Positions 5,397 to 60,682 of a DNA stretch of 64,000 bases are shown here, one piece after another. The stretch comes from an uncultured Actinomycetes bacterium. GTDB taxonomy: Bacteria; Actinomycetota; Coriobacteriia; Anaerosomatales; CAVRZR01. The position numbers were made by a program, and so were the translations under genes. The stretch lies in NCBI GenBank assembly GCA_963809535.1, contig CAWEJW010000001.1:553354-617353 (forward strand), given 5' to 3'. Each line of letters starts with the position of its first letter. Within the stretch, counting starts at the first letter, position 1. The notes under the pieces are model-generated. The model had not been told where the DNA came from, made no database searches, and was given only the letters and a program-made list of their open reading frames with translations.

Positions 5397-5481
5397 GCGG
5401 GCGTGGCGGAACTGGCAGACGCGCCGGATTTAGGATCCGGTGAGGAAACTCGTGGAGGTTCGAGTCCTCTCGCCCGCACCA
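5397..5481 (+). tRNA. tRNA-Leu (anticodon TAG), long variable arm, encoded CCA
   Basis: GCGGGCG acceptor pairs with CGCCCGC. Anticodon stem CCGGA/TCCGG encloses loop TTTAGGA. Extra arm present, T loop GGTTCGAGTCC, terminal ACCA. Confidence 0.85.
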
Positions 5482-7661: not shown

Positions 7662-8945
7662 ATGCCTCGCAGTGACGGTAACGACCGCGGCGAGAGGACC
7701 GAGCGCGGCGACCAGCTGAAGTGCTCGTTCTGCGGCAAGAGCCAGCGGCAGGTCCGCAAGCTCATCGCCGGGCCGGGTGTCTACATCTGCGATGAATGCA
7801 TCGAGCTCTGCAACGACATCGTCGAAGACGAGCTCGCCGAAGACGCGCACGTTGCGCCGCTGCTGGACGAGCTGCCCACACCCCGCGAGATCTACGACGT
7901 CCTGAACGACTACGTCGTCGGCCAGGACCGCGCCAAGAAGGTCCTCTCGGTGGCCGTCTACAACCACTACAAGCGCATCCACACGGGACCCGTCAGTGCG
8001 GACGAGGTGGAGCTGGCGAAGAGCAACATCCTCATGATCGGTCCGACAGGCTGCGGCAAGACACTGCTCGCTCAGACCCTTGCGCGTGTGCTCAAGGTTC
8101 CATTCGCGATCGCCGACGCTACCGCGCTCACCGAGGCCGGCTATGTTGGCGAGGACGTCGAGAACATCTTGCTCAAACTCATCACCGCAGCTGACTTCGA
8201 CGTCAAGCGGGCTGAAGTCGGCATCATCTACATCGACGAGATCGACAAGATCGCTCGCAAGGCCGAGAACCTGTCGATCACGCGCGACGTCTCGGGCGAG
8301 GGCGTGCAGCAGGCGCTTCTGAAGATCCTTGAGGGCACCGAGGCCGCGGTCCCTCCACAGGGCGGCCGCAAGCATCCGCAGCAAGAGCTCATCCGCATAG
8401 ACACGACGAACGTGCTCTTCATCCTCGGCGGCGCGTTCGTCGACTTGGAGAAGATCGTCGCCGACCGGGTCGGGAAGAAGGGCGTCGGATTCCGCGCCGA
8501 CCTCACCGACGCGCACGGCCACAAGACGGGGGTGCTGTTCGGTCAAGTGCTGCCCGAGGACCTCCACAAGTACGGTCTCATCCCCGAGTTCGTCGGTCGC
8601 CTTCCGGTCATCACGCACGTCGAGGACCTCACCGAGGAGGACCTCGTGCGCATCCTCACCGAGCCGAAGAACGCGCTGGTCAAGCAGTATCAGCGCCTCT
8701 TCCGGCTCGAGGACGTGGAGCTCACGTTCACACCCGAGGCGCTCACCGAGGTTGCCGCCCAGGCGGTCAAGCACGGCACCGGGGCCCGCGGCCTGCGATC
8801 CATCCTCGAAGGACTGCTGTTGGACACGATGTACGACTTGCCGAGTGAGAGCGACATCGAGCAAGTCGTTGTCACCGAGGAGTGCGTGCGCGGCGAGACG
8901 ACGCCCACCGTCGTGCGACGCGGCATGGGCGAGGCAAGCGCGTAG
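7662..8945 (+). CDS. clpX: ATP-dependent Clp protease ATP-binding subunit ClpX
   Basis: N-terminal zinc ribbon [27 protein letters not shown], Walker [12 protein letters not shown] and [10 protein letters not shown]. Confidence 0.95.
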
Positions 8946-9157
8946 CACCCAGGCGGCCGGGCCCAGGGGTCCGGCGCTCAGACAGTCCTCGGCGGGGCCC
9001 TCGGCGCTCGGTCGCGCCACCGGCGCGCCCTCGCGCTTTCCCCGCGTGCGGAACTCGCCGGACGACCCCCGCCCCCCGGCCGCACGCCAGTGTCTACGGA
9101 TCGACTCGTGTTTGGACTGCGGCCGGACGCCGGGAAGACCCCCCACACTTCCAGCAT

Positions 9158-9283
9158 GAACCGCCCAAGCTGATGGACCAGCTTCGGGAGGCGCTCGGTT
9201 CCCACCACTACAGCCGCCGAAGCGAGCAAGCCTACTGCCTCTGGGTACGATGCTTCATCCGCTTCCACAACATGCGGCATCCG
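9158..9283 (+). pseudogene. intI: integron integrase (IntI-type tyrosine recombinase) N-terminal remnant, about 42 codons
   Basis: Translation [42 protein letters not shown] parallels IntI1 [37 protein letters not shown]. Similarity ends at 9283 and the catalytic domain is absent. Confidence 0.7.
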
Positions 9284-9335
9284 CTCGTGGACGTACACGG
9301 ACTGCATAATCTATTGTTAGGCGCATCGGGGGGCT

Positions 9336-9797
9336 GTGAACGTGAGCAACCATGAGTGGACACCGGTCACCTTCGAGCACTGCGAGCACGTCGAGGGACC
9401 CTTCTACCACGGAACGAAGTCCGTGCTGAAGCTGGGCGATGAGCTTATCCCCGGTTTCGGCTCCAACTTCCAGGAACGCAGGGTCTCCAACAACATCTAC
9501 TTTTCCGCGCTGGTGGACACCGCCGCCTGGGGAGCGGAGCTGGCGACGGCGCTGGAGGGGAGCGGGGGACCGGGACACATCTACATCGTCGAACCTCTTG
9601 GTTCCTTCGAGGATGACCCCAACGTCACCAACAAGAGATTCCCCGGCAATCCCACCGAATCCTACCGCACCCGGGAGCCGCTTCGAGTCGTCGGCGAGGT
9701 CGAGGACTGGGAGGGGCACAGCCCCGACGTGATTCGGGGGATGCTGGACCATCTGGCACAGCTCCGGGAGCATGGGCTGGACGTCATCGAGGACTAG
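9336..9797 (+). CDS. arr: rifampin ADP-ribosyltransferase (Arr family)
   Basis: Full-length resemblance to Arr-2/Arr-3: [70 protein letters not shown] and C-terminal GL.VIED. Start is GTG 9336 or ATG 9352, 14-30 nt after GTTAGGC. Confidence 0.85.
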
Positions 9798-9805
9798 GGA
9801 CACCG

Positions 9806-9870
9806 CGTCGGCGACTGCTGCAGGCCCACCGGGTTCGTCCTGACCGCTGCACAAAGTCGACACGTTACGC
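9806..9870 (+). repeat. possible heterologous attC of the arr cassette
   Basis: Imperfect palindrome GTCGGCGACTGCTGCAGG...CCTGACCGCTGCACAAAGTCGAC ending in CACGTTACGC (GTTACGC at 9864-9870). It lacks the AAGCGCATCGAGCGG signature of the other sites. Confidence 0.3.
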
Positions 9871-9880
9871 GCATACCGGT

Positions 9881-9982
9881 GCCTGACCAGCGCATCGAGC
9901 GGACGCCGAGCGGTAGAATCAACCAGTTGTCGGCTGTATCGTGAATCCGAATTACCAGGTGTTGCGCTGGCGCGAGTTGCCT
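9881..9982 (+). repeat. attC-like site with atypical 3' arm
   Basis: GCCTGACCAGCGCATCGAGCGG...GGTAGAATCA...TGCGCTGG...GTTGCCT. The 5' arm and loop match the family; the 3' arm is divergent. Confidence 0.45.
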
Positions 9983-10006
9983 ACGTCATCCAGTCGTCGG
10001 TGAGTC

Positions 10007-10084
10007 GCCTAACAGGCGCTTCCAGCGGGCTGCGCTTGCCGCTGAAGCCGGAGATGCTAGCGCCCTGCTCGGCGGCGGTTCGCG
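10007..10084 (+). repeat. attC-like site
   Basis: GCCTAACAGGCGCTTCCAGCGG pairs with CCGCTGAAGC, leaving one unpaired C. Ends at GTTCGCG (10078-10084). Confidence 0.45.
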
Positions 10085-10471
10085 CTAGTCGGCGTAGTCG
10101 TCTTGTACCTGCCCCGCCGGAACGAACAGGGGCCTGACCTCGACGCCGCCATCGCGGTTGGTCGGGTGGAGCTTGGCAACCTGCACCGCCACGTCGATAT
10201 TGGGTGCCGCCACCACGTAGAACGCGGAGACAACCAGGTCCGACTCCACGAGCGTTCCGCTTCGTACCGTGTCGCCTTGGACGGCCATCGCGGTCGTACT
10301 CGGGTCGAAGGCGAATCCCCGCTGCTTGGGGAAGTAGGTGCCACCTAGTATCTTGCCGCCGAGCGCTTTGGCTTGTGCAGGGTAGTCGTCGAGCAACCCC
10401 ACATGCTCCGCGGTGAATGCCATGGGGTCTGCAGGTGCCGGCGAGTAGACAACCATTCCGTACTGAGGCAT
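10085..10471 (-). CDS. YciI-like (YCII domain) protein
   Basis: 128 aa. Layout YGMVVY....ALGGKILGG....VVSAFYVVAAPNIDVAVQVAKLHP...GGVEVRPLF resembles YCII-domain proteins. It is the single ORF of one attC-bounded unit, on the reverse strand. Confidence 0.55.
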   Translation of the reverse strand: MPQYGMVVYSPAPADPMAFTAEHVGLLDDYPAQAKALGGKILGGTYFPKQRGFAFDPSTTAMAVQGDTVRSGTLVESDLVVSAFYVVAAPNIDVAVQVAKLHPTNRDGGVEVRPLFVPAGQVQDDYAD

Positions 10472-10523
10472 CGGGTGCTCCCTTCAATTGGAGTTGGGCC
10501 GTATGTCTCCACTGTTGCCGCCG

Positions 10524-10604
10524 CGCTAACAAGCGCATCGAGCGGACGCCGCGAGCTACATGTCCCGATGCGTCTGAGCGCCGCTCACGCGCACACCGTA
10601 GCTT
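10524..10604 (+). repeat. attC-like site
   Basis: CGCTAACAAGCGCATCGAGCGGACGCC...GAGCGCCGCTCACGCGCACACCGTAGCT. Confidence 0.7.
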
Positions 10605-10837
10605 GAGTCCCGCACCCCCTTGATTCCGCTACCCGCTTTGATCGTCCTGCAGCGGCCATCTACCCCCAGCCCGAACCGGGCCACCACCTGGTTCGAGAGG
10701 CGCTCGATGCGCCAGCCCTGCTCCAGACGGCGTGGAACGACCCCACCCTGCACAGCCTTTCGGGGCCTCACCGCTGGTTCATGCTCAGGCACGCCTGCGG
10801 TGCGCGCCCAGCGCCAGCACCCCCGCTCAACGCTCTA

Positions 10838-11599
10838 CTAGGAGATCCTGCGGCGGTAGATGACCATGGCGACGATGTACGCGACGATGAGGAGGCCGAC
10901 ACACCAGGCAAGGGCGATCCAGATGTCGGTGCCGACCGGCTGCTGCGTGAGCAGGTCGCGGATCGCGTTGACGATGGACGTCACCGGCTGGTTCTCGGCG
11001 AAGGCGCGCACCGGGCCGGGCATGGTGTCGGTGGGCACGAATGCCGAGCTGATGAACGGCAGGAAGATGAGCGGGTAAGAGAACACGACCGCGCCGTCCG
11101 CGGTCTTGGCGGAGAGACCGGGGATCACGGCGAGCCACGTCAACGCCAGGGTGAACAGGATCAGGATGCCGGCGACCGCGAGCCACGCCAGCACGTCCGC
11201 CCCCGAGCGGAAGCCCATGAGTAGGGCGACGAGCACGACGACCACGAGCGACATCAGAATGGCGACCAGCGAGGTCAGCACATGCGCCCACAGCACGGAC
11301 GACCGTGCGATCGGCATGGAGTGGAATCGGTCGAAGATGCCGCTGTTCATATCCAGGAAGAGCCGGAATGCGGTGTAGGAGACGCCCGAGGCAACCGTGA
11401 TGAGCAGAATGCCGGGCAGCAGGTAGTTCACGTAAGAAGCCGACCCTGAGTTGATCGCGCCGCCGAACACGAAGACGAACAGCAGCATGAAGGCGATGGG
11501 CATGATCGTGGTCGTGATGATGGTGTCCAAGCTGCGCGTGATGTGGCGCAGGGATCGTCCCGTCAGGACGGCGGTGTCGCCGAAGAAATGCGTGGTCAT
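10838..11599 (-). CDS. ABC-2 type transporter permease
   Basis: 253 aa with six predicted hydrophobic segments. N-terminus LTGRSLRHITRSLDTIITTTIMPIAFMLLF is typical of ABC-2/DrrB-like permeases. Immediately downstream of the ATPase gene. Confidence 0.8.
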   Translation of the reverse strand: MTTHFFGDTAVLTGRSLRHITRSLDTIITTTIMPIAFMLLFVFVFGGAINSGSASYVNYLLPGILLITVASGVSYTAFRLFLDMNSGIFDRFHSMPIARSSVLWAHVLTSLVAILMSLVVVVLVALLMGFRSGADVLAWLAVAGILILFTLALTWLAVIPGLSAKTADGAVVFSYPLIFLPFISSAFVPTDTMPGPVRAFAENQPVTSIVNAIRDLLTQQPVGTDIWIALAWCVGLLIVAYIVAMVIYRRRIS

Positions 11600-11608
11600 C
11601 GTTGTTCC

Positions 11609-12412
11609 TTACTCGTCCGTGCCGACACTGCGGTCATTGCCGGCGTCGCCGCCCTTGCCGTCGTCACCGACGATGGCAAGGAAGACGTCCTCGAGGGTCG
11701 GCTGCTTCTCGACGTATTCGACCTTGGCGGGCGGGAGCAGCAGCTTGAGTCCGGCAAGGGTGTCGTTCACGATGATCCGGCCCCCATGGAGGATCGCGAT
11801 CCGGTCGGCGAGTTGTTCGGCCTCGTCGAGATCCTGCGTTGTGAGCAGTACCGTCGTGCCGTGCTCGGCGAGCTCCTTGACGGTCTGCCACACCTCGATG
11901 CGCGCCTGGGGGTCGAGCCCGGTCGTCGGCTCGTCGAGAAAGATGACCTGCGGATTCCCGATGAGGCTCATCGCGATGTCGAGGCGGCGACGCATGCCGC
12001 CCGAATACGTCGACACCTTCCGCACTGCCGCGTCGGTCAGCGAGAAACGATGGAGCAGGTCATCCGCGATGTTGCCCGGGTCCTTGAGGTGCCGCAACCG
12101 GGCGACCAGCACGAGGTTCTCCCGCCCGGAGAGGACTTCGTCGACGGCCGCGAACTGTCCGGTGAGGCTGATGGACTCCCGCACGTCCGCAGCCTGCGTG
12201 GCGACATCGAAGCCGTTGACACTGGCAGTCCCTGCGTCGGCCTTGAGCAGAGTACACAGGATATTCACCACCGTGGTCTTGCCCGCCCCGTTCGCACCGA
12301 GCAGGGCGAAGATGCTGCCCCGCGCGACGTCGAAGTCCACGCCGCGCAGCACCTTCAGTTCCTTGTACGACTTCTCCAGGCCCTGCACGTGGATCGCGGG
12401 TGCGGCAGTCAT
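11609..12412 (-). CDS. ABC transporter ATP-binding protein (DrrA-like)
   Basis: Start at MTAAPAIHVQGLEKSY. Walker A GANGAGKTT, signature YSGGMRRRL and Walker B VIFLDEPTTGLD. ATGA overlap with the upstream DUF1048 stop. Confidence 0.9.
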   Translation of the reverse strand: MTAAPAIHVQGLEKSYKELKVLRGVDFDVARGSIFALLGANGAGKTTVVNILCTLLKADAGTASVNGFDVATQAADVRESISLTGQFAAVDEVLSGRENLVLVARLRHLKDPGNIADDLLHRFSLTDAAVRKVSTYSGGMRRRLDIAMSLIGNPQVIFLDEPTTGLDPQARIEVWQTVKELAEHGTTVLLTTQDLDEAEQLADRIAILHGGRIIVNDTLAGLKLLLPPAKVEYVEKQPTLEDVFLAIVGDDGKGGDAGNDRSVGTDE

Positions 12413-12786
12413 TCCCGCTCCCCTCGCTCTGCGTCCTCGATGGCCTTGGTCAGGCGGGCGCGTTCCTTGTCGATCCAATGCTTGCCGGTGTAGGCCTGGG
12501 CGAAGGTCTCGGCGAACTCGACCGGGTCGTCCCCGACGATCGCGCGCACCGGTGTCCCGTCGGCGGCAGCGCGCTCCCAGAGCTCGGCGAAGTCGTCGAA
12601 CATCTTGAGAGCAGTCTCGCCTTCGGTGGTGACGCCCCCGTAGTACATGAAGTATCGCTGCAGAGCCTTCGCGACAGCGTCATACGGCTCGGGAAGGGCA
12701 TCAATGCGGGCCCTGTACTGCTTGTACTGCCTCTTCTGCTCGAGCGAACCAGTGACGGTCTCGATCCACTTGGCGGCCATGATCAC
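12409..12786 (-). CDS. DUF1048 domain protein (PadR-operon accessory protein)
   Basis: 125 aa. KQYKQYRARIDALPEPY......LQRYFMY is typical of DUF1048 proteins encoded next to PadR regulators. Confidence 0.7.
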   Translation of the reverse strand: MIMAAKWIETVTGSLEQKRQYKQYRARIDALPEPYDAVAKALQRYFMYYGGVTTEGETALKMFDDFAELWERAAADGTPVRAIVGDDPVEFAETFAQAYTGKHWIDKERARLTKAIEDAERGERE

Positions 12787-13100
12787 TTGCCCCCTTCATT
12801 GAGCTGTTCCAGTCGTTGCGCGAGGAAGCTCCACGTCTTCCAGAACTCCTTGAGGTACTCCTGTCCCTGAACGTTGAGCGAATACACTTTGCGCGGCGGG
12901 CCCTTCTCGGACGGGTGCTTCTCCACACCGACGAGGCCTATTTGCTCGATCCTGACGAGCAGCGCGTAGACAGTGCCCTCGGCAATGTCGGAGAAACCCA
13001 TCTCCCGCAACCGCGCCGTGATCTCGTAGCCGTACGCAGGCCGTTCGGACAGGATCGCGAGGACGATGCCCTCGAGGGTGCCCTTGAGCATTTCTGTCAT
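12783..13100 (-). CDS. PadR-family transcriptional regulator
   Basis: MTEMLKGTLEGIVLAILSERPAYGYEITARLREMGFSDIAEGTVYALLVRIEQIGLV...PPRKVYSLN.QG is the canonical PadR wHTH. Start chosen at the internal ATG (13100) of ORF 12783..13157. Confidence 0.85.
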   Translation of the reverse strand: MTEMLKGTLEGIVLAILSERPAYGYEITARLREMGFSDIAEGTVYALLVRIEQIGLVGVEKHPSEKGPPRKVYSLNVQGQEYLKEFWKTWSFLAQRLEQLNEGGK

Positions 13101-13239
13101 CTGCTTGCCCACGGAGCACCACCTCGGTCTACTGAGCACTACTAGGTACTGGTACATAGTAACACAGAGTAGTCGCGATGCAAGTCCGACCCATGGCGGG
13201 AGATTGCGGGGTGACAGGGTCCGGGGATCCGGCAGACCA

Positions 13240-13326
13240 AGCTAACAAGCGCTTCGAGCCGACGTCGCGAGCGCGTGTGCTGTCGCCGGAAGCGATTGAG
13301 CGCCGCTCAAACGCACCACGTTCGAT
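13240..13326 (+). repeat. attC-like site
   Basis: AGCTAACAAGCGCTTCGAGCCGACG...GAGCGCCGCTCAAACGCACCACGTTCGAT. Confidence 0.7.
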
Positions 13327-13371
13327 GCACCGAGCTGAGCGGCCTGGCACTACTTCTCGTGCCGGCCCGCT

Positions 13372-13836
13372 TTAGTATTCGCCCTTGATCACAAAGTATG
13401 AACCGCGAATCGTCCCGGCCAGTTTGGACTTCTGCCTGACGAACTTGAACTTCGCCTCCAGCTCGCTGGGCACTTCCATCCCGTCTGAGAGCTTGAAGCC
13501 AACAGCTCGCTTCTTGGGGTCATCGATCGCATACATGACGTTGACCGAAAGGCCGTTCTCATAGAAGACGTAGGCGATTCTGAGGTTCTCCACCTGAAAG
13601 CGTGACGTCTCCAGAGGTTTGGCAGCAAACTCAATATCGCGTTCTTCCTTGAGGATTCGGTTCACGTAGTCCAGCGTGTCGCGGCTTTCGCTTGCCGCCG
13701 TGACCGTGAACTCATGCTTGTACTTGTTCATGAAGTACCGGGCTTCATTGGCACGCAGACCAGCAAGCGCTCCAGCTACGGGTGAAGTCTCCAGACCAAC
13801 CGTAGAGACGTTCTCGAAATCAACGATCTCGGACAT
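13372..13836 (-). CDS. hypothetical protein (orphan cassette ORF)
   Basis: 154-aa uninterrupted ORF, visibly more AT-rich than its flanks, with K/E/F/Y-rich composition. No family recognised. Sole ORF between two attC-like sites. Confidence 0.55.
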   Translation of the reverse strand: MSEIVDFENVSTVGLETSPVAGALAGLRANEARYFMNKYKHEFTVTAASESRDTLDYVNRILKEERDIEFAAKPLETSRFQVENLRIAYVFYENGLSVNVMYAIDDPKKRAVGFKLSDGMEVPSELEAKFKFVRQKSKLAGTIRGSYFVIKGEY

Positions 13837-13951
13837 CCGTCTCGCTCCCTCTCTCCATTCTTCACGGAATCGAGTAGCTCTTACCCGATGTCAGATGATG
13901 ACGAACCGGCCACATTGAGAGCGAGCAATCTACACGGCCCGACTCGTGGGC

Positions 13952-14034
13952 GTCGAACAAGCGCATCGAGCGGGCAGCGTCAGGCACATTCGTCCCGACG
14001 TGCCGGACCGCCGCTCATGCGCACGACGTTGGGC
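13952..14034 (+). repeat. attC-like site
   Basis: GTCGAACAAGCGCATCGAGCGGGCAGCG...GGACCGCCGCTCATGCGCACGACGTTGGGC. Confidence 0.75.
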
Positions 14035-14099
14035 CTAGCCCGGGAATCCGCTGGTGGGAAGCGAGAGCGCCCCCCTCGGGGTGTTCAGTGCTCCTGCCC

Positions 14100-14813
14100 T
14101 CAGCAGCGCACCGCCCGGCGCTTGAAGCCGATCCTGCCCTTCTCCGCAGCTTTGCGAATCTGTTCGGCAGCACTGCCCAAAGGCTTGACTCTGCCGTTCG
14201 AGACTACCTCCACCGCCCCTATGTCGTCAGCAGTCTTCAGCGCCTCATCATGCAGCGGCTGATACGACACGCCAACGGCGACGATGAAGTTGCTCATGGC
14301 GTGCTTTAGGCGGGGTGATGCCGCGTGGATGGTCGCGGCAGCGAGTTCCAGCAACTCACCGACAGTCTCAGGTTCAAAGTAACTGTCCGGTCGCCACCCC
14401 AGCAGCCATTCGTAACATGCCCAGCCGGCGGATGCCCTGTTCTCTTCGCCACTGCGGATCCACCGGTTAGCCACTCTCTGGGCAAAGTCGGACTCAGCAA
14501 GCGTCACCGCGACTACAAAGTCCGAGAGCATCGCAGAATAGGCGCCATCTATCCAGCGTTCAAAACTTGCCTCAGTCATCACGCGGACATCTGCGATCAT
14601 TCCGGCGAAATACATTGCGTCATAGTTGCCGCTGTCCCACAGCTTCTCTGCGAGCGCTTGGTCCACGCCAATCTGCTTCTTGAGCGGCTTCATCGCACCC
14701 GTCGCTACGCCAAAGAGCGGCTCCCTGACTCCCCTCGACAGGTAGCTCTTCTTGGTACGCGCGGTGCCGAGGGATTCCAACTCGCACATAACCGAATCGA
14801 AGTCCAGGAACAT
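14100..14813 (-). CDS. DNA alkylation repair protein (AlkD-like HEAT-repeat family)
   Basis: 237 aa. LESLGTARTKKSYLSRGVREPLFGVATGAMKPLKKQIG.DQALAEKLWDSGNYDAMYFAGMIAD resembles the pfam DNA_alkylation family. Confidence 0.65.
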   Translation of the reverse strand: MFLDFDSVMCELESLGTARTKKSYLSRGVREPLFGVATGAMKPLKKQIGVDQALAEKLWDSGNYDAMYFAGMIADVRVMTEASFERWIDGAYSAMLSDFVVAVTLAESDFAQRVANRWIRSGEENRASAGWACYEWLLGWRPDSYFEPETVGELLELAAATIHAASPRLKHAMSNFIVAVGVSYQPLHDEALKTADDIGAVEVVSNGRVKPLGSAAEQIRKAAEKGRIGFKRRAVRC

Positions 14814-14897
14814 GGCACCTCATTTCAAACGCAGGCATTGATGTCAGGCTCACATTGTATGGCTAGCTCGTCGGCCCGCTTGGGGACTCGTGGACAG

Positions 14898-14981
14898 GCT
14901 TAACAAGCGCATCGAGCGGAAACCGCACGGTTAGAATCATCCCACGGCGCGTGAGCGCCGCCCGTGCGCACCACGTTAGGC
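14898..14981 (+). repeat. attC-like site (best-preserved copy)
   Basis: GCTTAACAAGCGCATCGAGCGGAAACCGCACGGTTAGAATCATCCCACGGCGCGTGAGCGCCGCCCGTGCGCACCACGTTAGGC. The terminal GCTTAAC / GTTAGGC are near-complementary. Confidence 0.8.
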
Positions 14982-14987
14982 GGATAC

Positions 14988-15563
14988 GTGAGAGACGTTG
15001 TCTACATCGCATCGATCTCGGTCGACGGGTTCCTCGGAGCCGAAGACGCGGACAACGCATGGGTCGTCCCAGACCCGGAGTTGCATCGACACTTCAACAC
15101 TCTCGAAGGTTCGTTCGATACGCATCTGTACGGTCGCCGCATGTATGAGCTGATGGCGCAATACTGGCCCGCCGCAGACGAACTGCCTGACGCCCCTGAC
15201 TACGTGGTTGAATACGCTCGAATCTGGAGAGCGATGCCCAAGGTCGTGTTCTCCAAGTCGCTTCATCAGGTCGAATGGAACTCCCGCTTGTTCGCTGGCG
15301 ACGCCGTCGGGGAGGTGGCGCGGCTCAAGACTGAGCACGGTGCATCCATGAGTGTCGGCGGGGCCGCTCTGGCAACATCGCTGGCGCAGCACGGATTGAT
15401 CGACGAGTTCCGCTTCTATGTGATGCCGACCGTCGTCGGATCGGGGACACCCATCTTCGGCGCGTTGGGTCGGCACATCGATCTCACCACCGCCGAGGTC
15501 CGGCAGTTCAGCTCAGGCGCTGTCCTGCTCAGGTACCGCGCGCAATCGTCCGTTACCGCCTGA
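14988..15563 (+). CDS. dihydrofolate reductase family protein (RibD C-terminal domain type)
   Basis: VVYIASISVDGF......LHRHFN.....DT.LYGRRMYELMAQYWP.A.....APDYVVEYARIW..MPKVVFS..L..VEWNSRL..GDAV.EV.RLK. GTG 14988 lies 7 nt after GTTAGGC; the TGA stop lies inside the next GCCTGAC. Confidence 0.75.
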   Translation: MRDVVYIASISVDGFLGAEDADNAWVVPDPELHRHFNTLEGSFDTHLYGRRMYELMAQYWPAADELPDAPDYVVEYARIWRAMPKVVFSKSLHQVEWNSRLFAGDAVGEVARLKTEHGASMSVGGAALATSLAQHGLIDEFRFYVMPTVVGSGTPIFGALGRHIDLTTAEVRQFSSGAVLLRYRAQSSVTA

Positions 15564-15638
15564 CAATGGCATCGAGCGGGCGGCGCCAGCGCTAGACTCA
15601 TGAGGCATGGGCCGCCGCTCATGCCAAGCACGTTAAGC
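15558..15638 (+). repeat. attC-like site
   Basis: GCCTGACAATGGCATCGAGCGGGCGGCGCCAGCGCTAGACTCATGAGGCATGGGCCGCCGCTCATGCCAAGCACGTTAAGC. Confidence 0.75.
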
Positions 15639-15691
15639 GTCCTTGCAGAACCGTTCGCGGCCCCGCAAGGACCGCCGTCCTTGGGAGAACA

Positions 15692-16258
15692 ATGGCCGAT
15701 CACGAGTCCAGATACTTCACGCTGAGCCTGGAGTCGCTCAGGGCCATTGCAGGCTGGGCTGCGGATTGTGCTGAGAGAGCGCTGTCGGTGTATGAGACGC
15801 ACGCCGATTCAGACTCACGGCCCCGTGCGGCGATCGAGGGCATCCGGGAGTTCGCGGGTGGCGCAAAGCGCATGGCTCGGTTGCGTTCCCTTGCTTGTGA
15901 GGCGAATGCCGCTGCGCGTGAGGTCGGCGATCCTGCTGCAGCGGCCGCTGCTCGCGCGGCGGGCCTTGCGGCGGCCAGTGCCTACACGCATCCCCTAGCG
16001 GATGTCCATCAAACGAAGCACATTGTCGGTCCAGCGGCCTATGCCGCACTGGCTCTTGAGCTCGACCACGATGGCGATCCGAGTGTCGCCGAGGGCGAGG
16101 TCCGCTGGGCAATCAAGCACGCCCCCTCTGAAGCGCGGGAGGTCTTGCTCCAGATGCCCGCTCGTCAAGCCGGCGAGAGTCGGTTGGACACGATCCTCTA
16201 TGAGCTGGATGCGGGCATCCGGGTTCGGAACTTGCCGCAAGACGCCCAAACACGTTAG
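15692..16258 (+). CDS. hypothetical alanine-rich helical protein (possibly immunity-protein-like)
   Basis: 188-aa ORF starting 54 nt after GTTAAGC. All-helical Ala-rich composition; family assignment is not secure. Confidence 0.55.
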   Translation: MADHESRYFTLSLESLRAIAGWAADCAERALSVYETHADSDSRPRAAIEGIREFAGGAKRMARLRSLACEANAAAREVGDPAAAAAARAAGLAAASAYTHPLADVHQTKHIVGPAAYAALALELDHDGDPSVAEGEVRWAIKHAPSEAREVLLQMPARQAGESRLDTILYELDAGIRVRNLPQDAQTR

Positions 16259-16260
16259 CC
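16220..16260 (+). repeat. degenerate attC 3' arm / R' core
   Basis: ...GCCGCAAGACGCCCAAACACGTTAGCC matches only the conserved 3' end (..AACACGTTAGGC) of the family. No clear 5' arm. Overlaps the stop of the preceding ORF. Confidence 0.3.
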
Positions 16261-16416
16261 ACACCCGAGCGCGAGGATGGGCAGGATCTCGTTCTCGTGC
16301 TGAGTGCGCTCATAGGCCTGCGCGCTCTGCAGGACGGCTGACGCACGGCCACGCTGAGTGATGATGAAATGCGGCCGGCATCATTAAGCGCGCGGCGGTA
16401 TCGGATGAGCCGATAG
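16261..16416 (+). pseudogene. Phd/YefM-type antitoxin remnant (N-terminally truncated, internal TGA)
   Basis: Frame reads TPEREDGQDLVLVLSALIGLRALQDG*RTATLSDDEMRPASLSARRYRMSR*, ending 3 nt before parE. It resembles the ..VVLVSAEEYE.L.ETLELLSDPE... C-terminal half of Phd/YefM. No start codon. Confidence 0.4.
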
Positions 16417-16419
16417 CTC

Positions 16420-16722
16420 GTGCGGGTCTGCTTCGTCCCACAGGCGCGCACCCAGTACCTCGCATCGCTGCGCTACGTGCGCACGCAGAGTCCTGCGGCG
16501 GCAGAAGCCATCCAGTTCCGCTCAGAGGCCGCCGTATGTCGGCTCCGCGCGCACTTTCGCTCGGGGCACTCGATCCCGGAGTTCGTTGACCTGCCGCACC
16601 TCGAGGTGCCGGTGGAACCCTACCGATTCTTCTACCGCGTCGCAGAGGAAGCCGCGTGGATCGTCGGCGTCTGGCATGCCCGTCAGTTGCCGGAGAGCCC
16701 GGACTCCCCGCTGCGTGGCTAG
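16420..16722 (+). CDS. parE: ParE/RelE-family type II toxin
   Basis: 100 aa. Has F.P.A...Y......Y....SP.AA..I......A...L...P.....IPEF.....E.PV.PYRFFYRV......IVGVWHARQ, the typical ParE layout. Confidence 0.7.
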   Translation: MRVCFVPQARTQYLASLRYVRTQSPAAAEAIQFRSEAAVCRLRAHFRSGHSIPEFVDLPHLEVPVEPYRFFYRVAEEAAWIVGVWHARQLPESPDSPLRG

Positions 16723-16845
16723 CCGGCGCTTCGACCTGATAACCTCGGCAAGACAGCTGCGCTCCTTTCGACTGAACCTCGCGCTCGGTTTCGCATACGT
16801 GACGACGGCGGACACGATCGTCGCACGGCTGACCACTCAGTCGTC

Positions 16846-16908
16846 GCCTAACAGCGCCATCCCGCCGGACGGCGCATCGCATCGCCGCTGATGCCGCACA
16901 GGCTAGGC
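16846..16908 (+). repeat. short attC-like site
   Basis: GCCTAACAGCGCCATCCCGCCGGACGGCGCATCGCATCGCCGCTGATGCCGCACAGGCTAGGC. Confidence 0.55.
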
Positions 16909-16964
16909 GACGGCAACGGGGGCGTAAGATTGAGTTGTCTCCTCGAAGCGGTTTCGTGTCTCCG

Positions 16965-17684
16965 ATGCGGAGAGCGATGAGACTCGCAGACGACCTGTAC
17001 AGGATCGACGGAATCGCGGGGGCCAACGTCTACCTGTTGGTAGCCGAGGACGGACTGACGCTGATCGATGCTGGCATGCCGGGGAACGCCGAGACGATCC
17101 TCGCCGCGATCAAGGGCATCGGCCTGGAGCCGAACGAACTTCGCCGTATCCTCCTGACGCACTCAGATCCTGACCACTCCGGCAGCGCCGCCCAGCTCAA
17201 GGACCTGACCGGCGCCTTGGTGGCGATCCACGGAGAGGACGCTCCCGCCTTGGCCGGAAAGAGGCGGAAGAGGACCGACGGGACCGGCGCCGCCCCGATG
17301 CGGAGTTCGAACATCGCTCGCGTCGGCCATAACCTAGCCATGCGCCTCGTCTTCAAGCTCTCGGGTCGGTTTCGTGACTTCAGGCCCGTCGACGCAGACA
17401 TCCTCCTCAAAGACGGCGACACGATCTCGGGCCTTCGCGTCATGCACGTTCCGGGACATACCCGGGGCAGCATCGCCCTTTGTCGCGAAGACGGCGTGGT
17501 GTTTTCCGGAGACGCCCTCCTGACCGATAGAGCTGGCCGCGTTCAGCCTCCGGCAGACGCCTTGGCTCTCAATCCTGCCAGAGCGTTTGCATCGGCCGAT
17601 AAGATTGAGTCGCTCGGATTCACGACTCTGTTGCCGGGACACGGGCCACCGGTTCGGCGAAACCGCGAGCAAGAACGCCGCTAG
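16965..17684 (+). CDS. MBL-fold metallo-hydrolase
   Basis: ANVYLLVAEDGLTLIDAGMPG and the metal motif LLTHSDPDHSGSA, followed by VPGHTRGS. Start uncertain: TTG 16935, ATG 16965 or ATG 16977. Confidence 0.8.
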   Translation: MRRAMRLADDLYRIDGIAGANVYLLVAEDGLTLIDAGMPGNAETILAAIKGIGLEPNELRRILLTHSDPDHSGSAAQLKDLTGALVAIHGEDAPALAGKRRKRTDGTGAAPMRSSNIARVGHNLAMRLVFKLSGRFRDFRPVDADILLKDGDTISGLRVMHVPGHTRGSIALCREDGVVFSGDALLTDRAGRVQPPADALALNPARAFASADKIESLGFTTLLPGHGPPVRRNREQERR

Positions 17685-17780
17685 GCACACGGACCAGGAC
17701 AGCCAAGGGAGAGCGCAGTCGTCGTATCGTTCATGCTGGTCGGAGCGCTGCTCAGGTCCGGGCGACACCGCTCCAAAGCC

Positions 17781-17863
17781 GCCGGAGAAACGGATCGAGC
17801 GGACGACGTCAACGCTAGACCGGAGCTCGCGCAGGAGGGCCGCTCATGCGCAACACGTTAGGC
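17781..17863 (+). repeat. attC-like site
   Basis: GCCGGAGAAACGGATCGAGCGGACGACGTCAACGCTAGACCGG...GGGCCGCTCATGCGCAACACGTTAGGC. The R'' end is degenerate; the 3' arm is canonical. Confidence 0.7.
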
Positions 17864-17893
17864 CGATTCGGTCGCTCTTCGGAGCGGAGCATA

Positions 17894-18262
17894 GTGGCAC
17901 CGGTCGTAGTCGTGATCTCATCCACCCTGGGATGGCCAGCGCTTGAACTCGCCGTGTTCTGGCTTCGGTTCCACCACCTCCCCTCGAATGGCGCGGTTGA
18001 GGCTCTTGTCTTCGCTCCCATGGGATTGGTTGCGGGCCTCGTCGCTGCAGTACTGATGAACCGGGCCTCGACCTCGCGCCAGCGGCGTTTCGTGCTCTGG
18101 GGCTATCTTGCCGCGAGCCCGTTTGCCCTGGTCGGTGCACTGCTGGGCGGGCTCGTGCTTCCGGGAGTGTGGGGGCCACTCGTGTCGGGGGCGATGCCGC
18201 TCGCCGTGGGCTGTCTGCTAGGGTTCGCTGTTGGTCGTTCGCGCGACAGCGGAACGGCCTAA
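17894..18262 (+). CDS. small hydrophobic membrane protein, unknown function
   Basis: About 122 aa with 3-4 hydrophobic segments. In-frame GTG 31 nt after GTTAGGC. The TAA stop lies inside the next GCCTAAC. Confidence 0.45.
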   Translation: MAPVVVVISSTLGWPALELAVFWLRFHHLPSNGAVEALVFAPMGLVAGLVAAVLMNRASTSRQRRFVLWGYLAASPFALVGALLGGLVLPGVWGPLVSGAMPLAVGCLLGFAVGRSRDSGTA

Positions 18263-18317
18263 CAACCGCATCGAGCAGACGGCCTTCGGCCGCCGCTGAT
18301 GCGCCCAACGGTAGGTG
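18257..18317 (+). repeat. short attC-like site
   Basis: GCCTAACAACCGCATCGAGCAGACGGCCTTCGGCCGCCGCTGATGCGCCCAACGGTAGGTG. Confidence 0.65.
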
Positions 18318-18342
18318 TGGCATTTCCCGGAAGGGCAGAGCC

Positions 18343-18867
18343 GTGGAGATAGTGCCGCTCGATTCCTCCGATCGCGACTGGGTCGCTTCGCTCATGCGCG
18401 AGCACTTTGGGTCGGAACGCGTGGTTGTACGCGGCCGGATGCTCGATACGTCGACGCTTCCCGGACTCGTTGCTCTCCGCGATGACACTCGCGTCGGATT
18501 CCTCCACTACCTGCTCGGCGGTGCGGAGTGCGAGGTCGTCTCACTCGTCTCGACTGTTCCCCGCACCGGCGTCGGCAGGATCTTGCTCGACGCACTTGGC
18601 GACTTCGCCGCCTCGCGCGGCGCGAACAAGCTCGTTCTCGTGACCACCAACGACAACGTTTCGGCGCAGCGCCTCTACGAGGCTTGCGGGTTCGAACACT
18701 CTGCCACGCGCCCTGGAGCCATCTCGCGCGCCCGTCAGCTCAAGCCTGAGATCCCGCTCAGCGGCCAGGGCGGGACGGCCATCGAGGACGAACTGGAGTA
18801 CCAACGAAGGCTCGTGCACACCGGACAAGCGCATCAACCTGACGCGCACAGGTCGCGCGTAGACTGA
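18343..18867 (+). CDS. GNAT-family N-acetyltransferase
   Basis: GTG 18343 gives VEIVPLDSSDRDW... The acetyl-CoA pocket motif is present: VVSLVSTVPRTGVGRILLDALGDFAASRGA..LVLVTTNDN..AQRLYEACGF. The ORF 3' end runs into the next attC-like site. Confidence 0.8.
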   Translation: MEIVPLDSSDRDWVASLMREHFGSERVVVRGRMLDTSTLPGLVALRDDTRVGFLHYLLGGAECEVVSLVSTVPRTGVGRILLDALGDFAASRGANKLVLVTTNDNVSAQRLYEACGFEHSATRPGAISRARQLKPEIPLSGQGGTAIEDELEYQRRLVHTGQAHQPDAHRSRVD

Positions 18868-18906
18868 GAGGGAAGCGGCGCGCCGGTTGTGCGCACGACG
18901 CTAGGT
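18820..18906 (+). repeat. attC-like site
   Basis: ACCGGACAAGCGCATCAACCTGACGCGCACAGGTCGCGCGTAGACTGAGAGGGAAGCGGCGCGCCGGTTGTGCGCACGACGCTAGGT. Confidence 0.6.
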
Positions 18907-18953
18907 GCGATCGCGACAAAGACGGGGGTGTGCAGTGAACCAGACTCTGTTGT

Positions 18954-19166
18954 ATGCAGCGTCCGCACTCCGGGGTTGCCCCGCAGCCCGATGAGGGAAC
19001 GGCGGCCCATCTCTTCCGGCTGCTCATGATCACGCAGGTGCCGATCGTCACGTTCTTCGCGCTCAAGTGGTTGCCGCGGGCTAGAAGGCAGGCGTTGGAG
19101 GTACTTGCCTTGCAGGCCGCCGCCGCGCTCGCAGCATTGGCACCCGTTTACCTCTTGAAGTGGTGA
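18954..19166 (+). CDS. small hypothetical membrane protein
   Basis: 70-aa ORF with two hydrophobic stretches. Only ORF in a 380-bp attC-bounded unit. Confidence 0.35.
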   Translation: MQRPHSGVAPQPDEGTAAHLFRLLMITQVPIVTFFALKWLPRARRQALEVLALQAAAALAALAPVYLLKW

Positions 19167-19201
19167 ACGAGTTCGAGCGAAGCCGGAATCGACTTCAGCC
19201 G

Positions 19202-19286
19202 GTCTGGCAAGCGCATCGAGCAGAACGCCGGAAGGTAGACTGACTTGAGAGCGCATCGGCGTCTGCTCATGCGCAACACGTTCGAC
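19202..19286 (+). repeat. attC-like site
   Basis: GTCTGGCAAGCGCATCGAGCAGAACGCCGGAAGGTAGACTGAC...GGCGTCTGCTCATGCGCAACACGTTCGAC. Confidence 0.7.
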
Positions 19287-19304
19287 CTGGCCCAAGGGGG
19301 GACG

Positions 19305-19766
19305 ATGAGACACGCCCGGGCGGTCGTGGTGGCGGTCGCGGTGCTCGTCGCCACCTCGTCGGTGGCATGTACTGCGGCCAAGGCCCCTACCCAGATTCAT
19401 GAGACGACCTCGTCGACCGGAGATGGTCCTACTCTCACTGGCGTCGTCGGGGACATCGTGGGCGGGCGGGTTGGTGAGGGTGAGAACGTCACCGTCGTGG
19501 GCTACTGCCGGGGTTGGGACCTTCTGGGGGAGGTGGACGGTCCGCCGCCAGTGACGAGAAGCGACTGGGTGATACGAGACGACGGTGGCGCAGTCTACGT
19601 CCAAGCGAATGGCGTCCAGGTCACCGGGAAGCTCCCGGACGACGCTGGGCGCCTTCCCTCACAACCAACGACGACGACCTATGTGCTCGAAGTGACGGGC
19701 ATGGTACGCACATCTTCGGAAGGCAGGCCCTACATCGAGCCTTCCGCCATAGCGTTCGTGAGATGA
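19305..19766 (+). CDS. secreted lipoprotein, function unknown
   Basis: MRHARAVVVAVAVLVATSSVACTAAK (signal peptide plus Cys). ATG is 19 nt after GTTCGAC and is preceded by GGGGGGA. Confidence 0.6.
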   Translation: MRHARAVVVAVAVLVATSSVACTAAKAPTQIHETTSSTGDGPTLTGVVGDIVGGRVGEGENVTVVGYCRGWDLLGEVDGPPPVTRSDWVIRDDGGAVYVQANGVQVTGKLPDDAGRLPSQPTTTTYVLEVTGMVRTSSEGRPYIEPSAIAFVR

Positions 19767-19788
19767 GGCCCTGGACCTCGAGTGGCGT

Positions 19789-19892
19789 GTCAACCAGCGC
19801 TTCGACCTGGCAGACCTCGGCTAGGGAACTACGCTGGGGCTACAAGCGCTCGCGGCCTCGGTTTGCAGGCCAAGCGCTCAGCGACGTTGGGC
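19789..19892 (+). repeat. long attC-like site
   Basis: TGTCAACCAGCGCTTCGACCTGGCAGACC...GGCCAAGCGCTCAGCGACGTTGGGC. Confidence 0.55.
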
Positions 19893-19952
19893 CAGAATCG
19901 GATCGTGGCAGGTGGGCTAGCAGGGGATACGGCCGAAGGTTATCGTGTGAGC

Positions 19953-20375
19953 ATGGCTTCTCGAGAGGAGGGGCTGGTGAGCAGGGTCGTAGCGCGATAC
20001 GCCGACGGTCGGATAGTCAAGGGCGTGACAGCCGACTTCTTCCCGGGGAAGGACCTATTCCACGTGAGGGAGGCGAGCGCCCCAGTCGAGGCGAAGCCCC
20101 TGGAGGTCCACACGAAGGACTTGAAGGCGTTGTTCTTCGTGAAGGACTTCGCAGGCGACCCGCAGCGCGTCGACCGGAATGAGTTCGACACCTCACGCCC
20201 ACTGCCCGGGCGCCGGATCAGGGTGGTATTCAAGGACGGCGAAATCGTGGTGGGAACCACGACAGGCTATCAGCCCGGACGCCCGGGGTTCTTCATCGAA
20301 CCGGCGGATGCCGAGTCAAACAACGAACGGTGCTATGTAGTCGCAGCGGCGACCCGAGACGTCAGCTTCTTCTGA
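19953..20375 (+). CDS. conserved hypothetical protein with an internal two-fold repeat
   Basis: 141 aa from ATG 19953. YADGRIVKGVTADFFPGKDLFHV is echoed by FKDGEIVVGTTTGYQPGRPGFFIEP. I cannot name a characterised family. Confidence 0.55.
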   Translation: MASREEGLVSRVVARYADGRIVKGVTADFFPGKDLFHVREASAPVEAKPLEVHTKDLKALFFVKDFAGDPQRVDRNEFDTSRPLPGRRIRVVFKDGEIVVGTTTGYQPGRPGFFIEPADAESNNERCYVVAAATRDVSFF

Positions 20376-20405
20376 CACGCATGGCACCACTTGAGGCGAG
20401 CAGCC

Positions 20406-20503
20406 CCCGAACAAAAGGATTGAGCCCACAACGCGCCTCAGAAGTCGGACCAGGGTTCGAGGGGGTAGCCGGCGCCCCGCAGCTCATCCGCCCGTCGTTG
20501 GGC
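20406..20503 (+). repeat. attC-like site
   Basis: CCCGAACAAAAGGATTGAGCCCACAACGCG...CCGCAGCTCATCCGCCCGTCGTTGGGC. Confidence 0.55.
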
Positions 20504-20572
20504 GCGACGCGTAGGCGGGTATGAATCGCTGCAGACAGGACTACGGTGGCTGCAGACCGATGGAGGCGGGTC

Positions 20573-20992
20573 ATGATGACGACGAGCACCAACGGCTCCG
20601 GCACCCGGGAGGATCCCTGGATCCTCAAGACCCCGAGCGGATCGTCGGAGTACCAGATGTATCGCGATGAGACCGCCGATCCGCCGGCACTCGTGTGCGT
20701 CGTCGGGAAGACCGTGCTCGGCTATCAATTGCGCGCCATCGAGGACCTCCACGCGATGCTCAAGGAGAACGGCGACTGGATGCCTCTCGGCAGCGCTGAC
20801 GAGCAGAAGCCTGCCGCAGAGGGTACGGTCGAAGCGTGGGGCCGCTCACCGAACAATCCGGTCGGTGGCTGGTACGGGCTCAAGAAGGGCCTGCGCGGGC
20901 GCTTCGGGATGTACATGCCCCCGCTACTGGAGGCTCTCGGACTCGCTGAGGTCGAACACAACCCGCGGAACAACCGGATGCGAGCGTTGTAG
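20573..20992 (+). CDS. conserved hypothetical protein
   Basis: 139 aa from ATG 20573 (GGAGG 8 nt upstream). Recognisable blocks are DPW.L.TP..SSEY.MYRD, LGSADEQKPAAEGTVEAW, NPVGGWYGLKKG.RGRFG and HNPRNNRMRA. Function unknown. Confidence 0.55.
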   Translation: MMTTSTNGSGTREDPWILKTPSGSSEYQMYRDETADPPALVCVVGKTVLGYQLRAIEDLHAMLKENGDWMPLGSADEQKPAAEGTVEAWGRSPNNPVGGWYGLKKGLRGRFGMYMPPLLEALGLAEVEHNPRNNRMRAL

Positions 20993-21035
20993 TCATGCTG
21001 TGCCGCTGGCATCCGCGCTCGCGGGAGTGGTCGCG

Positions 21036-21124
21036 CCGCCCAAAAGGCGCGTCAAGCTAACGGCCAGAAGCTAGACTGCGGAAGAGCGTCGCTACGCCTC
21101 GGGTCATGCGGCACGACGCTCGCC
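21036..21124 (+). repeat. terminal, degenerate attC-like site
   Basis: GCCGCCCAAAAGGCGCGTCAAGCTAACGGCCAGAAGCTAGACTGCGG...CGGGTCATGCGGCACGACGCTCGCC keeps the loop CTAGAC and a 3' arm like ..TCATGCGCACGACG.. but has a weak R'. Confidence 0.45.
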
Positions 21125-21294: not shown

Positions 21295-22143
21295 ATGGAG
21301 TTCCTCTTCGAGATAACACACGCTCAGCGACGGGTGATCCTCGCTGTGTGCGTGGTGAGCGTTCTTGCGCTCGGCTACGGGAACCAGGTCGTCGAGGCGG
21401 CTCTCCAAGTTAGCAGCGGGGTGCTGTTCCTCGCCCCGACAGCGGTCATTGCCTGGATGTATCCTCGCCGATTCTCATTCTTGTTCGCGTTGTATGCCGC
21501 CGTCGTCGCGACCGCCTCCCATGTCGCAGTGAATCGCTTCTCTCCCGCCCAGACGGCGGCCGAATTCGTGATCCAAGCGGGTGCGTTCTTGTCGGCAGCC
21601 GCGATCGTGAACCTCTTGGCGGCCGTGATGCGCACGCAGACTCATCGCGCGCGCGTCGACGCGCTCACCGAGACGGTCAACACAGGACGTTTCCATGAGT
21701 TCGTCCATCGCGAACTCGCGCGCGCGAAACGCTACGATCACCCGGTCACGGTCGCCTTCATCGACCTTGACAACTTCAAGATGGTCAATGATAGCTACGG
21801 GCACCTCGTAGGGGATGAGGCTTTGCGCTCCCTGGCTGCCCTTATGAGCCAGCACGTGCGCGGCACCGATATCGTCGGCCGGCTCGGCGGCGACGAGTTC
21901 GGCATCCTCATGCCCGAGACCGGTGAAGACGCGGCCCGCGTGGTCTTGGACCGCCTCAGGACACGCATCGACGAATACGCGACTGAGAAGCGTTGGCCGA
22001 TCAGCGCCAGCATCGGAGCGGCCACCATGGCCGGTGCGTGCTGTGATGCCACGTCCGAGGAGGTCATCAGGCGTGCGGACGGTGCGATGTATCGCGTCAA
22101 GTCAGCGAACAAGGACGGCGTGCTGATCGAGTCGTTCGACTGA
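21295..22143 (+). CDS. membrane-anchored diguanylate cyclase (GGDEF domain)
   Basis: N-terminal hydrophobic segments, then D.LT...NR..F.........R....V.VAFIDLDNFK.VND.YGH..GD..L and the active site GRLGGDEFGILMP. Confidence 0.85.
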   Translation: MEFLFEITHAQRRVILAVCVVSVLALGYGNQVVEAALQVSSGVLFLAPTAVIAWMYPRRFSFLFALYAAVVATASHVAVNRFSPAQTAAEFVIQAGAFLSAAAIVNLLAAVMRTQTHRARVDALTETVNTGRFHEFVHRELARAKRYDHPVTVAFIDLDNFKMVNDSYGHLVGDEALRSLAALMSQHVRGTDIVGRLGGDEFGILMPETGEDAARVVLDRLRTRIDEYATEKRWPISASIGAATMAGACCDATSEEVIRRADGAMYRVKSANKDGVLIESFD

Positions 22144-22311
22144 TCCGAGTACCCGAGCCCCTCCGGATGCGCCGTCTCCGAAGGGGATCGCCCTCTCGAG
22201 GATCCTCGGACAAGCGGTTCGGAAGAGGCATTCTGCCCGGCCATGCGCCCGAGGCGCGCTTCCCCTACAATCGTGCCCACGCTTCACGCGAGAACGAACA
22301 GGAAGGGCCCG

Positions 22312-55934: not shown

Positions 55935-57452
<1,518 letters not shown>

Positions 57453-57676: not shown

Positions 57677-60682
<3,006 letters not shown>

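Follow-up and report, generated by a model that had tools for sequence, protein, structure and literature searches.

Clinical class 1 integrons carry a divergent intI1 gene, are mobile on Tn402-like elements and, where the integrase gene is truncated, have usually been truncated by IS elements. The Xanthomonas integrons at the ilvD locus, the subject of work by Gillings et al. in PNAS in 2005, reportedly include lineages whose intI has been inactivated, with intact copies in close relatives. Most lesions in these Xanthomonas genes are said to be frameshifts, stop codons or IS insertions.

Clusters of attC sites lacking an integron integrase were defined as CALIN by Cury et al. 2016, and only 15 of 279 CALIN were found to have a recognisable pseudogene (PMC4889954). 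An "inverted integron-integrase" layout is known from the chromosomal integron of Treponema denticola and from others (PMC4889954, PMC3607928), and the group that shares it is paraphyletic according to Cury et al. (PMC4889954). Complete integrons have been described as absent or virtually absent from Actinobacteria/Actinomycetota (PMC4889954, PMC9024848, PMC13323075), while one review counts Actinobacteriota among the phyla with integrons (PMC8618304). A literature search found no paper linking integrons with OPB41 or Coriobacteriia.

The locus described here belongs to genome G000 (2.33 Mb, 7 contigs, 97.9% complete) and was analysed in a window of 64,000 nt, which is the whole stretch G000:C1:553354-617353; positions without a contig name are positions in this window. 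The window is a high-GC stretch in which tig, clpP, clpX, the stub of an intI gene, a repeat-punctuated region, a GGDEF gene and valS follow one another. A tRNA is found at 5397-5478 and a complete rRNA operon (16S, 23S, 5S) at 55936-60908.

Taken on its own, the stub is an ordinary intI pseudogene beside an orphan cassette array. A complete integron is defined by a functional intI, an adjacent attI and at least one attC site; the locus has the attI core and at least 12 attC sites and has no functional intI. With 12 attC sites found by covariance model it falls under the definition of a CALIN or degenerate integron, which is at least two attC sites with no functional IntI nearby. Like other CALIN, it is an attC array without a functional integrase nearby in a replicon that encodes another IntI, and the origin proposed for it is the loss of intI from a complete integron. 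Unlike the CALIN that have been surveyed, it has kept its attI core, and its loss of intI can be read directly from a congener with an intact orthologue in the same place. The layout of the locus, with intI on the attC top strand and attI 3' of the intI stop, is that of the inverted-integrase architecture. It is therefore like the Treponema denticola integron in having intI on the attC/cassette strand with attI 3' of the intI stop, but it differs in its Actinomycetota host and in a conserved bipartite attI, and the two are likened by layout, not by phylogeny. As in the Xanthomonas ilvD integrons, a sedentary array at a fixed housekeeping locus has outlasted its integrase; here, in contrast, a deletion of about 0.9 kb has left 42 codons, and the genome has a second, intact integron. 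With the truncated intI1 of class 1 integrons it shares a fixed array addressable only by an integrase in trans, but it has no divergent intI, no Tn402-like mobility and no truncation by an IS element.

Our main reading, to which we give a probability of about 0.9, is one of gene decay, in which a deletion of about 0.9 kb and a frameshift at the start codon cost a co-directional integron beside clpX its integrase. As a further intI pseudogene beside a CALIN, the locus is of moderate note, for its comparative documentation and its actinobacterial host. It would be a clean, datable example of a CALIN arising from a complete integron. An N-terminal-only remnant is invisible to the standard screen for the C-terminal domain, and a stub such as this one would be missed by the pseudogene survey of Cury et al. 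2016; this suggests that the published 95% of CALIN without a nearby intI pseudogene may be an overestimate.

Identity of the remnant

The stub and its surroundings, from clpX to the crossover, consist of the following features.

7662-8945, + strand: clpX, the upstream flank of the integron, a 427-aa ORF 89% identical to G002 ClpX
8955-9081: dispersed repeat of about 127 nt, lying between clpX and intI and no part of the integron; four more copies in G000 at 80-86% identity
9068-9157, + strand: conserved intI upstream region, a putative promoter and 5' UTR, holding the ancestral ATG at 9156-9158
9158-9283, + strand: intI stub, 42 codons of the N-terminal SAM-like core-binding domain
9284-9293, + strand: 10-nt junction CTCGTGGACG at the deletion breakpoint, with no convincing counterpart in the intact intI/attI regions of G002 and G000
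9294-9322, + strand: attI core remnant TACACGGACTGCATAATCTATT and crossover box GTTAGGC, matching the proximal attI core of relatives

The dispersed repeat of about 127 nt also occurs in same-genus genomes and is not found in the clpX-intI spacer of G002. In many relatives a GTTRRRY-like motif is conserved about 80-100 nt 5' of the intI N-terminus (CCGGTAAGAAC, GGTTAGGTC, GCGTTCAGACTC). Its counterpart in the window lies at about 9100-9112 (GTGTTTGGACTG), and a promoter, an operator and the left border of the platform are candidates for what it is.

An earlier note on this DNA had taken the peptide encoded at 9158-9283 (+) for the N-terminus of an IntI protein. The translation agrees with the one given there in all 42 letters, and the profile and tblastn comparisons bear out the assignment. 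The peptide matches PF13495 (Phage_int_SAM_4) in Pfam with E 1.2e-9 and 38.9 bits over profile positions 1-38. Its only matches among NCBIfam models are to two models of integron integrases, PRK15417 (E 3.9e-12) and TIGR02249 (E 5.6e-8), so that it does better against IntI than against SAM-like domains in general. It covers positions 1-38 of the 315 in TIGR02249 and scores 29-32 bits against a cut-off of 265. In tblastn searches it matched all 20 IntI genes taken from relatives, at 55-83% identity, and none of the genome's own XerC/XerD-like genes at E<=1e-3. The closest of these relatives is the intact clpX-linked IntI of G002 (83% aa), while identity to the intact IntI of G000 itself is 72.5% at the amino acid level and 81% at the nucleotide level. 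The stub is confirmed as the remnant of an integron integrase gene and is IntI-specific.

Similarity to IntI had been said to end abruptly at 9283, and a DNA comparison with intact intI genes places its end at exactly this position. The similarity of the peptide ends at codon 42, and the stub lacks the catalytic domain (PF00589, with the R-K-H-R-H-Y residues). Also missing is the IntI-specific additional domain, an insertion around ALDRKYPNA...WQWVFPQ that is present in all 12 of the intact relatives aligned. A six-frame search of the whole genome returned no TIGR02249 or PF00589 match in the window except the stub, in agreement with the earlier statement that the catalytic domain is nowhere in the window. 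With about 280 codons gone, no single-base correction after 9283 would restore intI, and a sequencing error at that point does not account for the truncation. Within what is left, alignment with the 12 intact IntI shows that two near-invariant motifs have been altered, RHYS to HHYS and VERF/Y to VRCF.

The deletion and the start codon

Of the four same-genus genomes searched, the comparison at clpX rests on G002, as clpX is unassembled in G001, G003 and G004 (52%, 61% and 90% complete). On G002 contig C90, the 3' part of clpX is directly followed on the same strand by an intact intI of 320 aa, which scores 485.9 bits against TIGR02249. The clpX genes of the window and G002 are 84% identical at the nucleotide and 89% at the amino acid level, and the window aligns to G002 on both sides of a gap. 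On the left, 9068-9282 aligns with the intI upstream region and the start of the gene at 78% nucleotide identity. On the right, the G002 attI crossover lies about 100 nt past intI (...ACACAGACTGTAGATTCATT/GTTAGCG, the slash here and below marking the crossover). Between the Pro-42 codon and the GTT of the crossover, G002 has 938 nt and the window 32 nt, so that about 906 nt are missing; relative to G002 these take in codons 43 to about 320 with the stop, and the distal portion of attI. The note had suggested a deletion that fused an early intI codon to the attI/first-cassette junction, and G002 upholds this, as clpX, an intact intI and attI follow one another there in the corresponding place and direction. 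The 10 nt at 9284-9293 are unexplained, and the right-hand breakpoint is therefore placed only approximately. A search for microhomology at the breakpoint set the CCG of RHP against the CCG of the C-terminal RSP, sequences that are very short.

The stub has a second lesion at its other end. Loss of 1 nt has put the ancestral ATG (9156-9158) out of frame, the window reading ATGAACCGCCC where G002 reads ATGAACCCGCCC; over the intI start region the same deletion is seen as ATGAACCGCCCAAG in the window against ATGAACCCGCCCAAG in G002. With a deletion of about 0.9 kb and a frameshifted start, the locus cannot make an integrase.

Because the stub is nearer to the clpX-linked IntI of G002 than to the resident intact IntI, it is taken as orthologous to the clpX-linked intI. 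The possibility that it is a recent copy of the resident gene was considered and rejected on the same grounds, with identities of 81% (nt) and 72.5% (aa) to that gene and a closer match to the one in G002.

These comparisons suggest the following course. A chromosomal intI directly 3' of clpX would once have pointed into its own attI and cassettes, all on one strand. A deletion of the size given above would have taken the body of the gene from codon 43 onwards, its stop and the distal attI, so that the 42 N-terminal codons came to lie no more than 10 nt from the attI core with its GTT crossover. The start codon would have been frameshifted independently, by the loss of 1 nt. The outcome is a 12-kb orphan array, running from arr to DUF6855 and headed by a recognisable pseudogene, with a second, intact integron 337 kb away holding the only integron integrase left in the genome.

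Between the stub and G002 intI, pN/pS is 0.25 (pS 0.47; with 42 codons the estimate has little power), within the 0.17-0.51 found for pairs of functional IntI. Most of the divergence therefore appears to have built up while selection was acting, and compared with the species split the deletion is probably young, as far as 42 codons of little statistical power can tell. The value may reflect either recent inactivation or too few codons, and it sits uneasily with an old, eroding array.

A ratio of 0.25 could also mean that the remnant has been kept as a functional module. The promoter and 5' region of intI might now drive arr, the first cassette gene, or a 60-aa peptide (from the ATG at 9173 to the stop at 9355) might be retained, for example to bind DNA at attI. 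It would be in keeping with this that 9068-9157 is conserved with G002 about as well as coding sequence and that the deletion puts arr about 180 nt past the former intI start. However, no sigma-70-like promoter was found on the + strand in 8900-10100, and neither inspection nor the promoter search gave a convincing LexA-type operator or sigma-70 promoter upstream of the stub. The change of near-invariant residues and the frameshift of the ancestral start also speak against a retained peptide, no comparable truncated form was seen at the clpX locus in any relative, and the low ratio comes from 42 codons with little statistical power. Retention of function is accordingly an unlikely explanation of the stub, and decay of the gene is preferred.

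The attI remnant

The earlier note had placed a GTTAGGC site at 9316-9322 as the start of the first cassette, and the site is there. The window reads CTCGTGGACG TACACGGACTGCATAATCTATT/GTTAGGC, and the 22 nt at 9294-9315 match the attI core of the lineage. This core was recognised by comparing the 260 nt 3' of the intI stop codon in 20 relatives, in most of which attI is bipartite (loci L008-L026). A distal element directly follows the intI stop (consensus CTTACACGGACTGCATAT), and a proximal core abuts the crossover (consensus ACACAGACTGTAGAATCATT/GTTAG). In the intact integron of G000, the GTT at the proximal core (ATTGATT/GTTCGATGA) is complementary to the R'' box of the first attC (TCATCGAAC), which confirms the crossover point. 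With the attI core at 9294-9315, the junction between attI and the first cassette survives in the window.

The right half of the remnant is of the proximal type (AATC(T)ATTGTT), while its left half has the nucleotides that set the distal element apart (ACACGG, CTGCA). The two elements may thus be fused into a hybrid here, which may in turn mean that a repeat-mediated deletion took place inside attI besides the deletion in intI, i.e., two deletions rather than one. The proximal attI core also contains a -10-like TAGAAT, and one may speculate that it could double as a cassette promoter.

The attI core bears on whether the gene was split rather than deleted, with its body surviving elsewhere. Integron integrases can use secondary sites, and cassettes might have been inserted at a secondary GTT inside intI; alternatively, the two integrons of G000 are in opposite orientation (+ at 562 kb, - at 900 kb) and could in principle have recombined by inversion. 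Nevertheless, the sequence between the stub and the GTT is the attI core of the lineage and not intI coding sequence, no orphan C-terminal part of an IntI occurs anywhere in the 97.9%-complete genome, and the intact intI has an N-terminus of its own that is only 72.5% identical to the stub. A split gene is largely refuted by these observations and is very improbable. A fragment at C3:249604-249711 that matches TIGR02249 positions 275-311 was considered as the missing half and rejected; only the universal box II region is matched, and the fragment (C3:249.4-249.7 kb) is a frameshifted generic tyrosine recombinase unrelated to the stub. At G000:C3:249400-250100 this recombinase fragment adjoins a TIR-domain ORF (WDVFISHAWEDKD...) in a lower-GC island near the contig end.

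That the real chromosome has a full intI after clpX, lost here to collapse or mis-joining of integron repeats, is scarcely credible, for although assemblies often break at integron arrays and many intI genes of relatives lie at contig ends, the only other intI in G000 is 81% identical to the stub at the nucleotide level, too low for assembler collapse to be expected, the junction forms a coherent attI core, the 1.44-Mb contig contains no N, and the independent loss of 1 nt at the ATG is likewise in keeping with a real pseudogene. Split gene, assembly artefact and functional module are all unlikely, and decay through deletion remains the preferred account of the stub.

A second, intact integron

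The genome-wide search for a full intI found one intact copy, 337 kb from the stub and outside the window.

G000:C1:900018-901043, - strand: intact intI, 486 bits against TIGR02249 (cut-off 265)
G000:C1:852807-901160, - strand: intact integron of about 48 kb with about 44 attC sites, outside the window

Alignment of the 12 intact IntI shows that this gene carries the catalytic residues and the IntI-specific insertion; its product is 79.5% identical to the clpX-linked IntI of G002, and the latter is 90% identical to the pnp-linked IntI of G003. The integron occupies the short stretch that separates pnp, the PNPase gene, from the gene after it, and runs from intI through attI to about 44 attC sites from 901 kb to 860 kb, all on the minus strand. 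G000 has three intact tyrosine recombinases, namely Xer-like genes at 720 kb and 924 kb and the intact intI, and none of them lies in the window.

Together the two arrays of G000 hold about 56 attC sites. Since the sites of both are of the same family, the intact IntI could in principle act on the orphan array, and any further excision or reshuffling of its cassettes would depend on this pnp-linked IntI. The note had held that the array could be reshuffled only in trans. The presence of an intact paralogous integron with the same attC family 337 kb away gives this idea a candidate integrase, but no sign of shuffling was seen. Trans-shuffling between the arrays was looked for and no sign of recent exchange was found, which is no evidence either way on activity. 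Three attC-like covariance-model hits of 25-39 bits lie outside both arrays, at G000:C1:470587-471675 (+) and C7:29419-29504 (-), and may be mini-CALIN or single inserted cassettes.

The orphan cassette array

The attC sites were located with a covariance model (R1) built from 22 sites of the intact G000 array and run over the whole genome. The array behind the stub and its downstream flank are made up as follows.

9336-9797, + strand: arr, rifampin ADP-ribosyltransferase family, first cassette (PF12120 Arr-ms, E 1.1e-43, 99/99 profile positions)
10007-21124, + strand: cassette array with 12 attC sites found by covariance model
10007-10062, 10524-10603, 13240-13326, 13952-14034, 14898-14981 and 15558-15638: attC sites 1-6 (covariance model)
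17781-17863, 18257-18316, 18820-18906, 19202-19286, 19788-19892 and 21038-21124: attC sites 7-12 (covariance model)
about 9881-9981, 16846-16907 and 20420-20503: degenerate attC sites seen by eye
21295-22143, + strand: GGDEF gene (Pfam GGDEF), downstream flank
22243-24906, + strand: valS (Pfam tRNA-synt_1 and Anticodon_1), downstream flank

A homologue of arr, 88% identical, occurs at G003:C4:377851-378375 (L027) as an internal cassette 115 kb from the intI of G003, and the copies in the window and in G003 differ in their 5' leaders. The presence of arr as first cassette in an environmental actinobacterium bears on the possible origin of integron-borne arr cassettes. The cassette genes after arr include a weak YCII-like ORF and a gene for a DNA-alkylation-repair-like protein, and further ones encode RibD_C, an Imm5-like protein, a metallo-beta-lactamase-fold protein, GNAT, DUF6982 and DUF6855. 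A 2.7-kb slot at 10603-13246 is occupied by a reverse-strand unit of four genes (PadR, DUF1048, ABC ATPase and ABC-2 permease). The ORFs of cassettes 2 to 5 are all opposite to the attC top strand.

Since the attC model was trained on sites from one of the two arrays, its scores do not tell them apart, and conservation of the recombination triplets was used instead. In the stub array the GTT of R' is kept in 7/12 sites (the variants being GCT, CGT and GGT) and the AAC of R'' likewise in 7/12. Both triplets are kept in 4/12 sites of the stub array and in 33/44 of the intact array (Fisher p=0.014). When the 22 training sites are left out, the intact array has both triplets in 15/22 sites and p rises to 0.075, and the distal end of the intact array is eroded too. 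The erosion of the triplets is a trend consistent with an inactive array, not proof of one. Apart from matches of attC to attC, a single RibD_C cassette (75%) is homologous between the arrays, and no near-identical cassette common to the two G000 arrays was found. With eroded triplets and no shared recent cassette, the array looks to be fossilising, and from this pattern it would seem to be no longer recombined and to be eroding.

Orientation and distribution in the order

The stub points in the same direction as the cassettes, unlike the intI of class 1-3 integrons. The earlier note was right in this and presented it as a feature of the locus, but the orientation is not peculiar to it. The intact integron of G000 and that of G002 are co-directional as well. 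Over 33 loci of relatives searched with the attC model, attC sites lay downstream of intI and on the same strand wherever they were detected, and none lay upstream; the exception to the same-strand rule is one opposite-strand attC site, seen in two loci. A co-directional intI is native to the lineage and not the product of a rearrangement.

The order is probably OPB41/Anaerosomatales-like Coriobacteriia. The closest relatives that carry names are uncultured Coriobacteriia/Actinomycetota MAGs, among them UBA2279, a family that GTDB places in the OPB41/Anaerosomatales order (PMC9686372). In its genome size and GC content G000 is in keeping with that order, to which it probably belongs. Of the 61 genomes of the order, 39 carry an intI that scores above the curated cut-off. 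Set against a literature on integron-poor Actinomycetota, this context outweighs the stub itself. Partial, split or stop-containing intI genes were found in G013, G014, G016, G044, G051, G055, G012:C97, G015 and G008:C99. Broken intI is thus common in the order and integrase decay would be recurrent, with the limit that some of these genes lie at contig edges and may be assembly truncations.

The clpX gene is followed directly by valS in 26 of the 29 other genomes of the order for which the clpX locus was fetched, which marks the 12-kb integron block as a genus-specific insertion. An intI beside pnp is also present in G003, G004 and one further MAG. The platforms of G000 and G002 are reciprocal, G000 having a dead one at clpX and a live one at pnp, and G002 a live one at clpX and none at pnp. 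In G002 the spacer between pnp and the next gene is 14 nt long (pnp ...TAGGC, then GAATCGAGCGGCAG, then the ATG of the next gene), and G002 therefore lacks the entire 48-kb element.

A wider scenario can be put forward tentatively, although as a whole it is somewhat doubtful. Co-directional chromosomal integrons would be the rule in the order, and platforms consisting of intI, attI and array would be gained and lost whole at tight intergenic sites, such as those between clpX and valS and between pnp and the next gene. The ancestor of the genus would have had both; G000 would have killed the one at clpX by internal deletion, while G002 would have kept that one and now be without the 48-kb one at pnp, with no obvious scar. 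If this is true, the published view of Actinomycetota as essentially integron-free would be overturned, and the genus would offer a natural system for how "sedentary" integron platforms relocate and replace each other. The empty pnp spacer of G002 does contain ATCGAGCGG, the signature of attC L'', whether as a scar or by chance.
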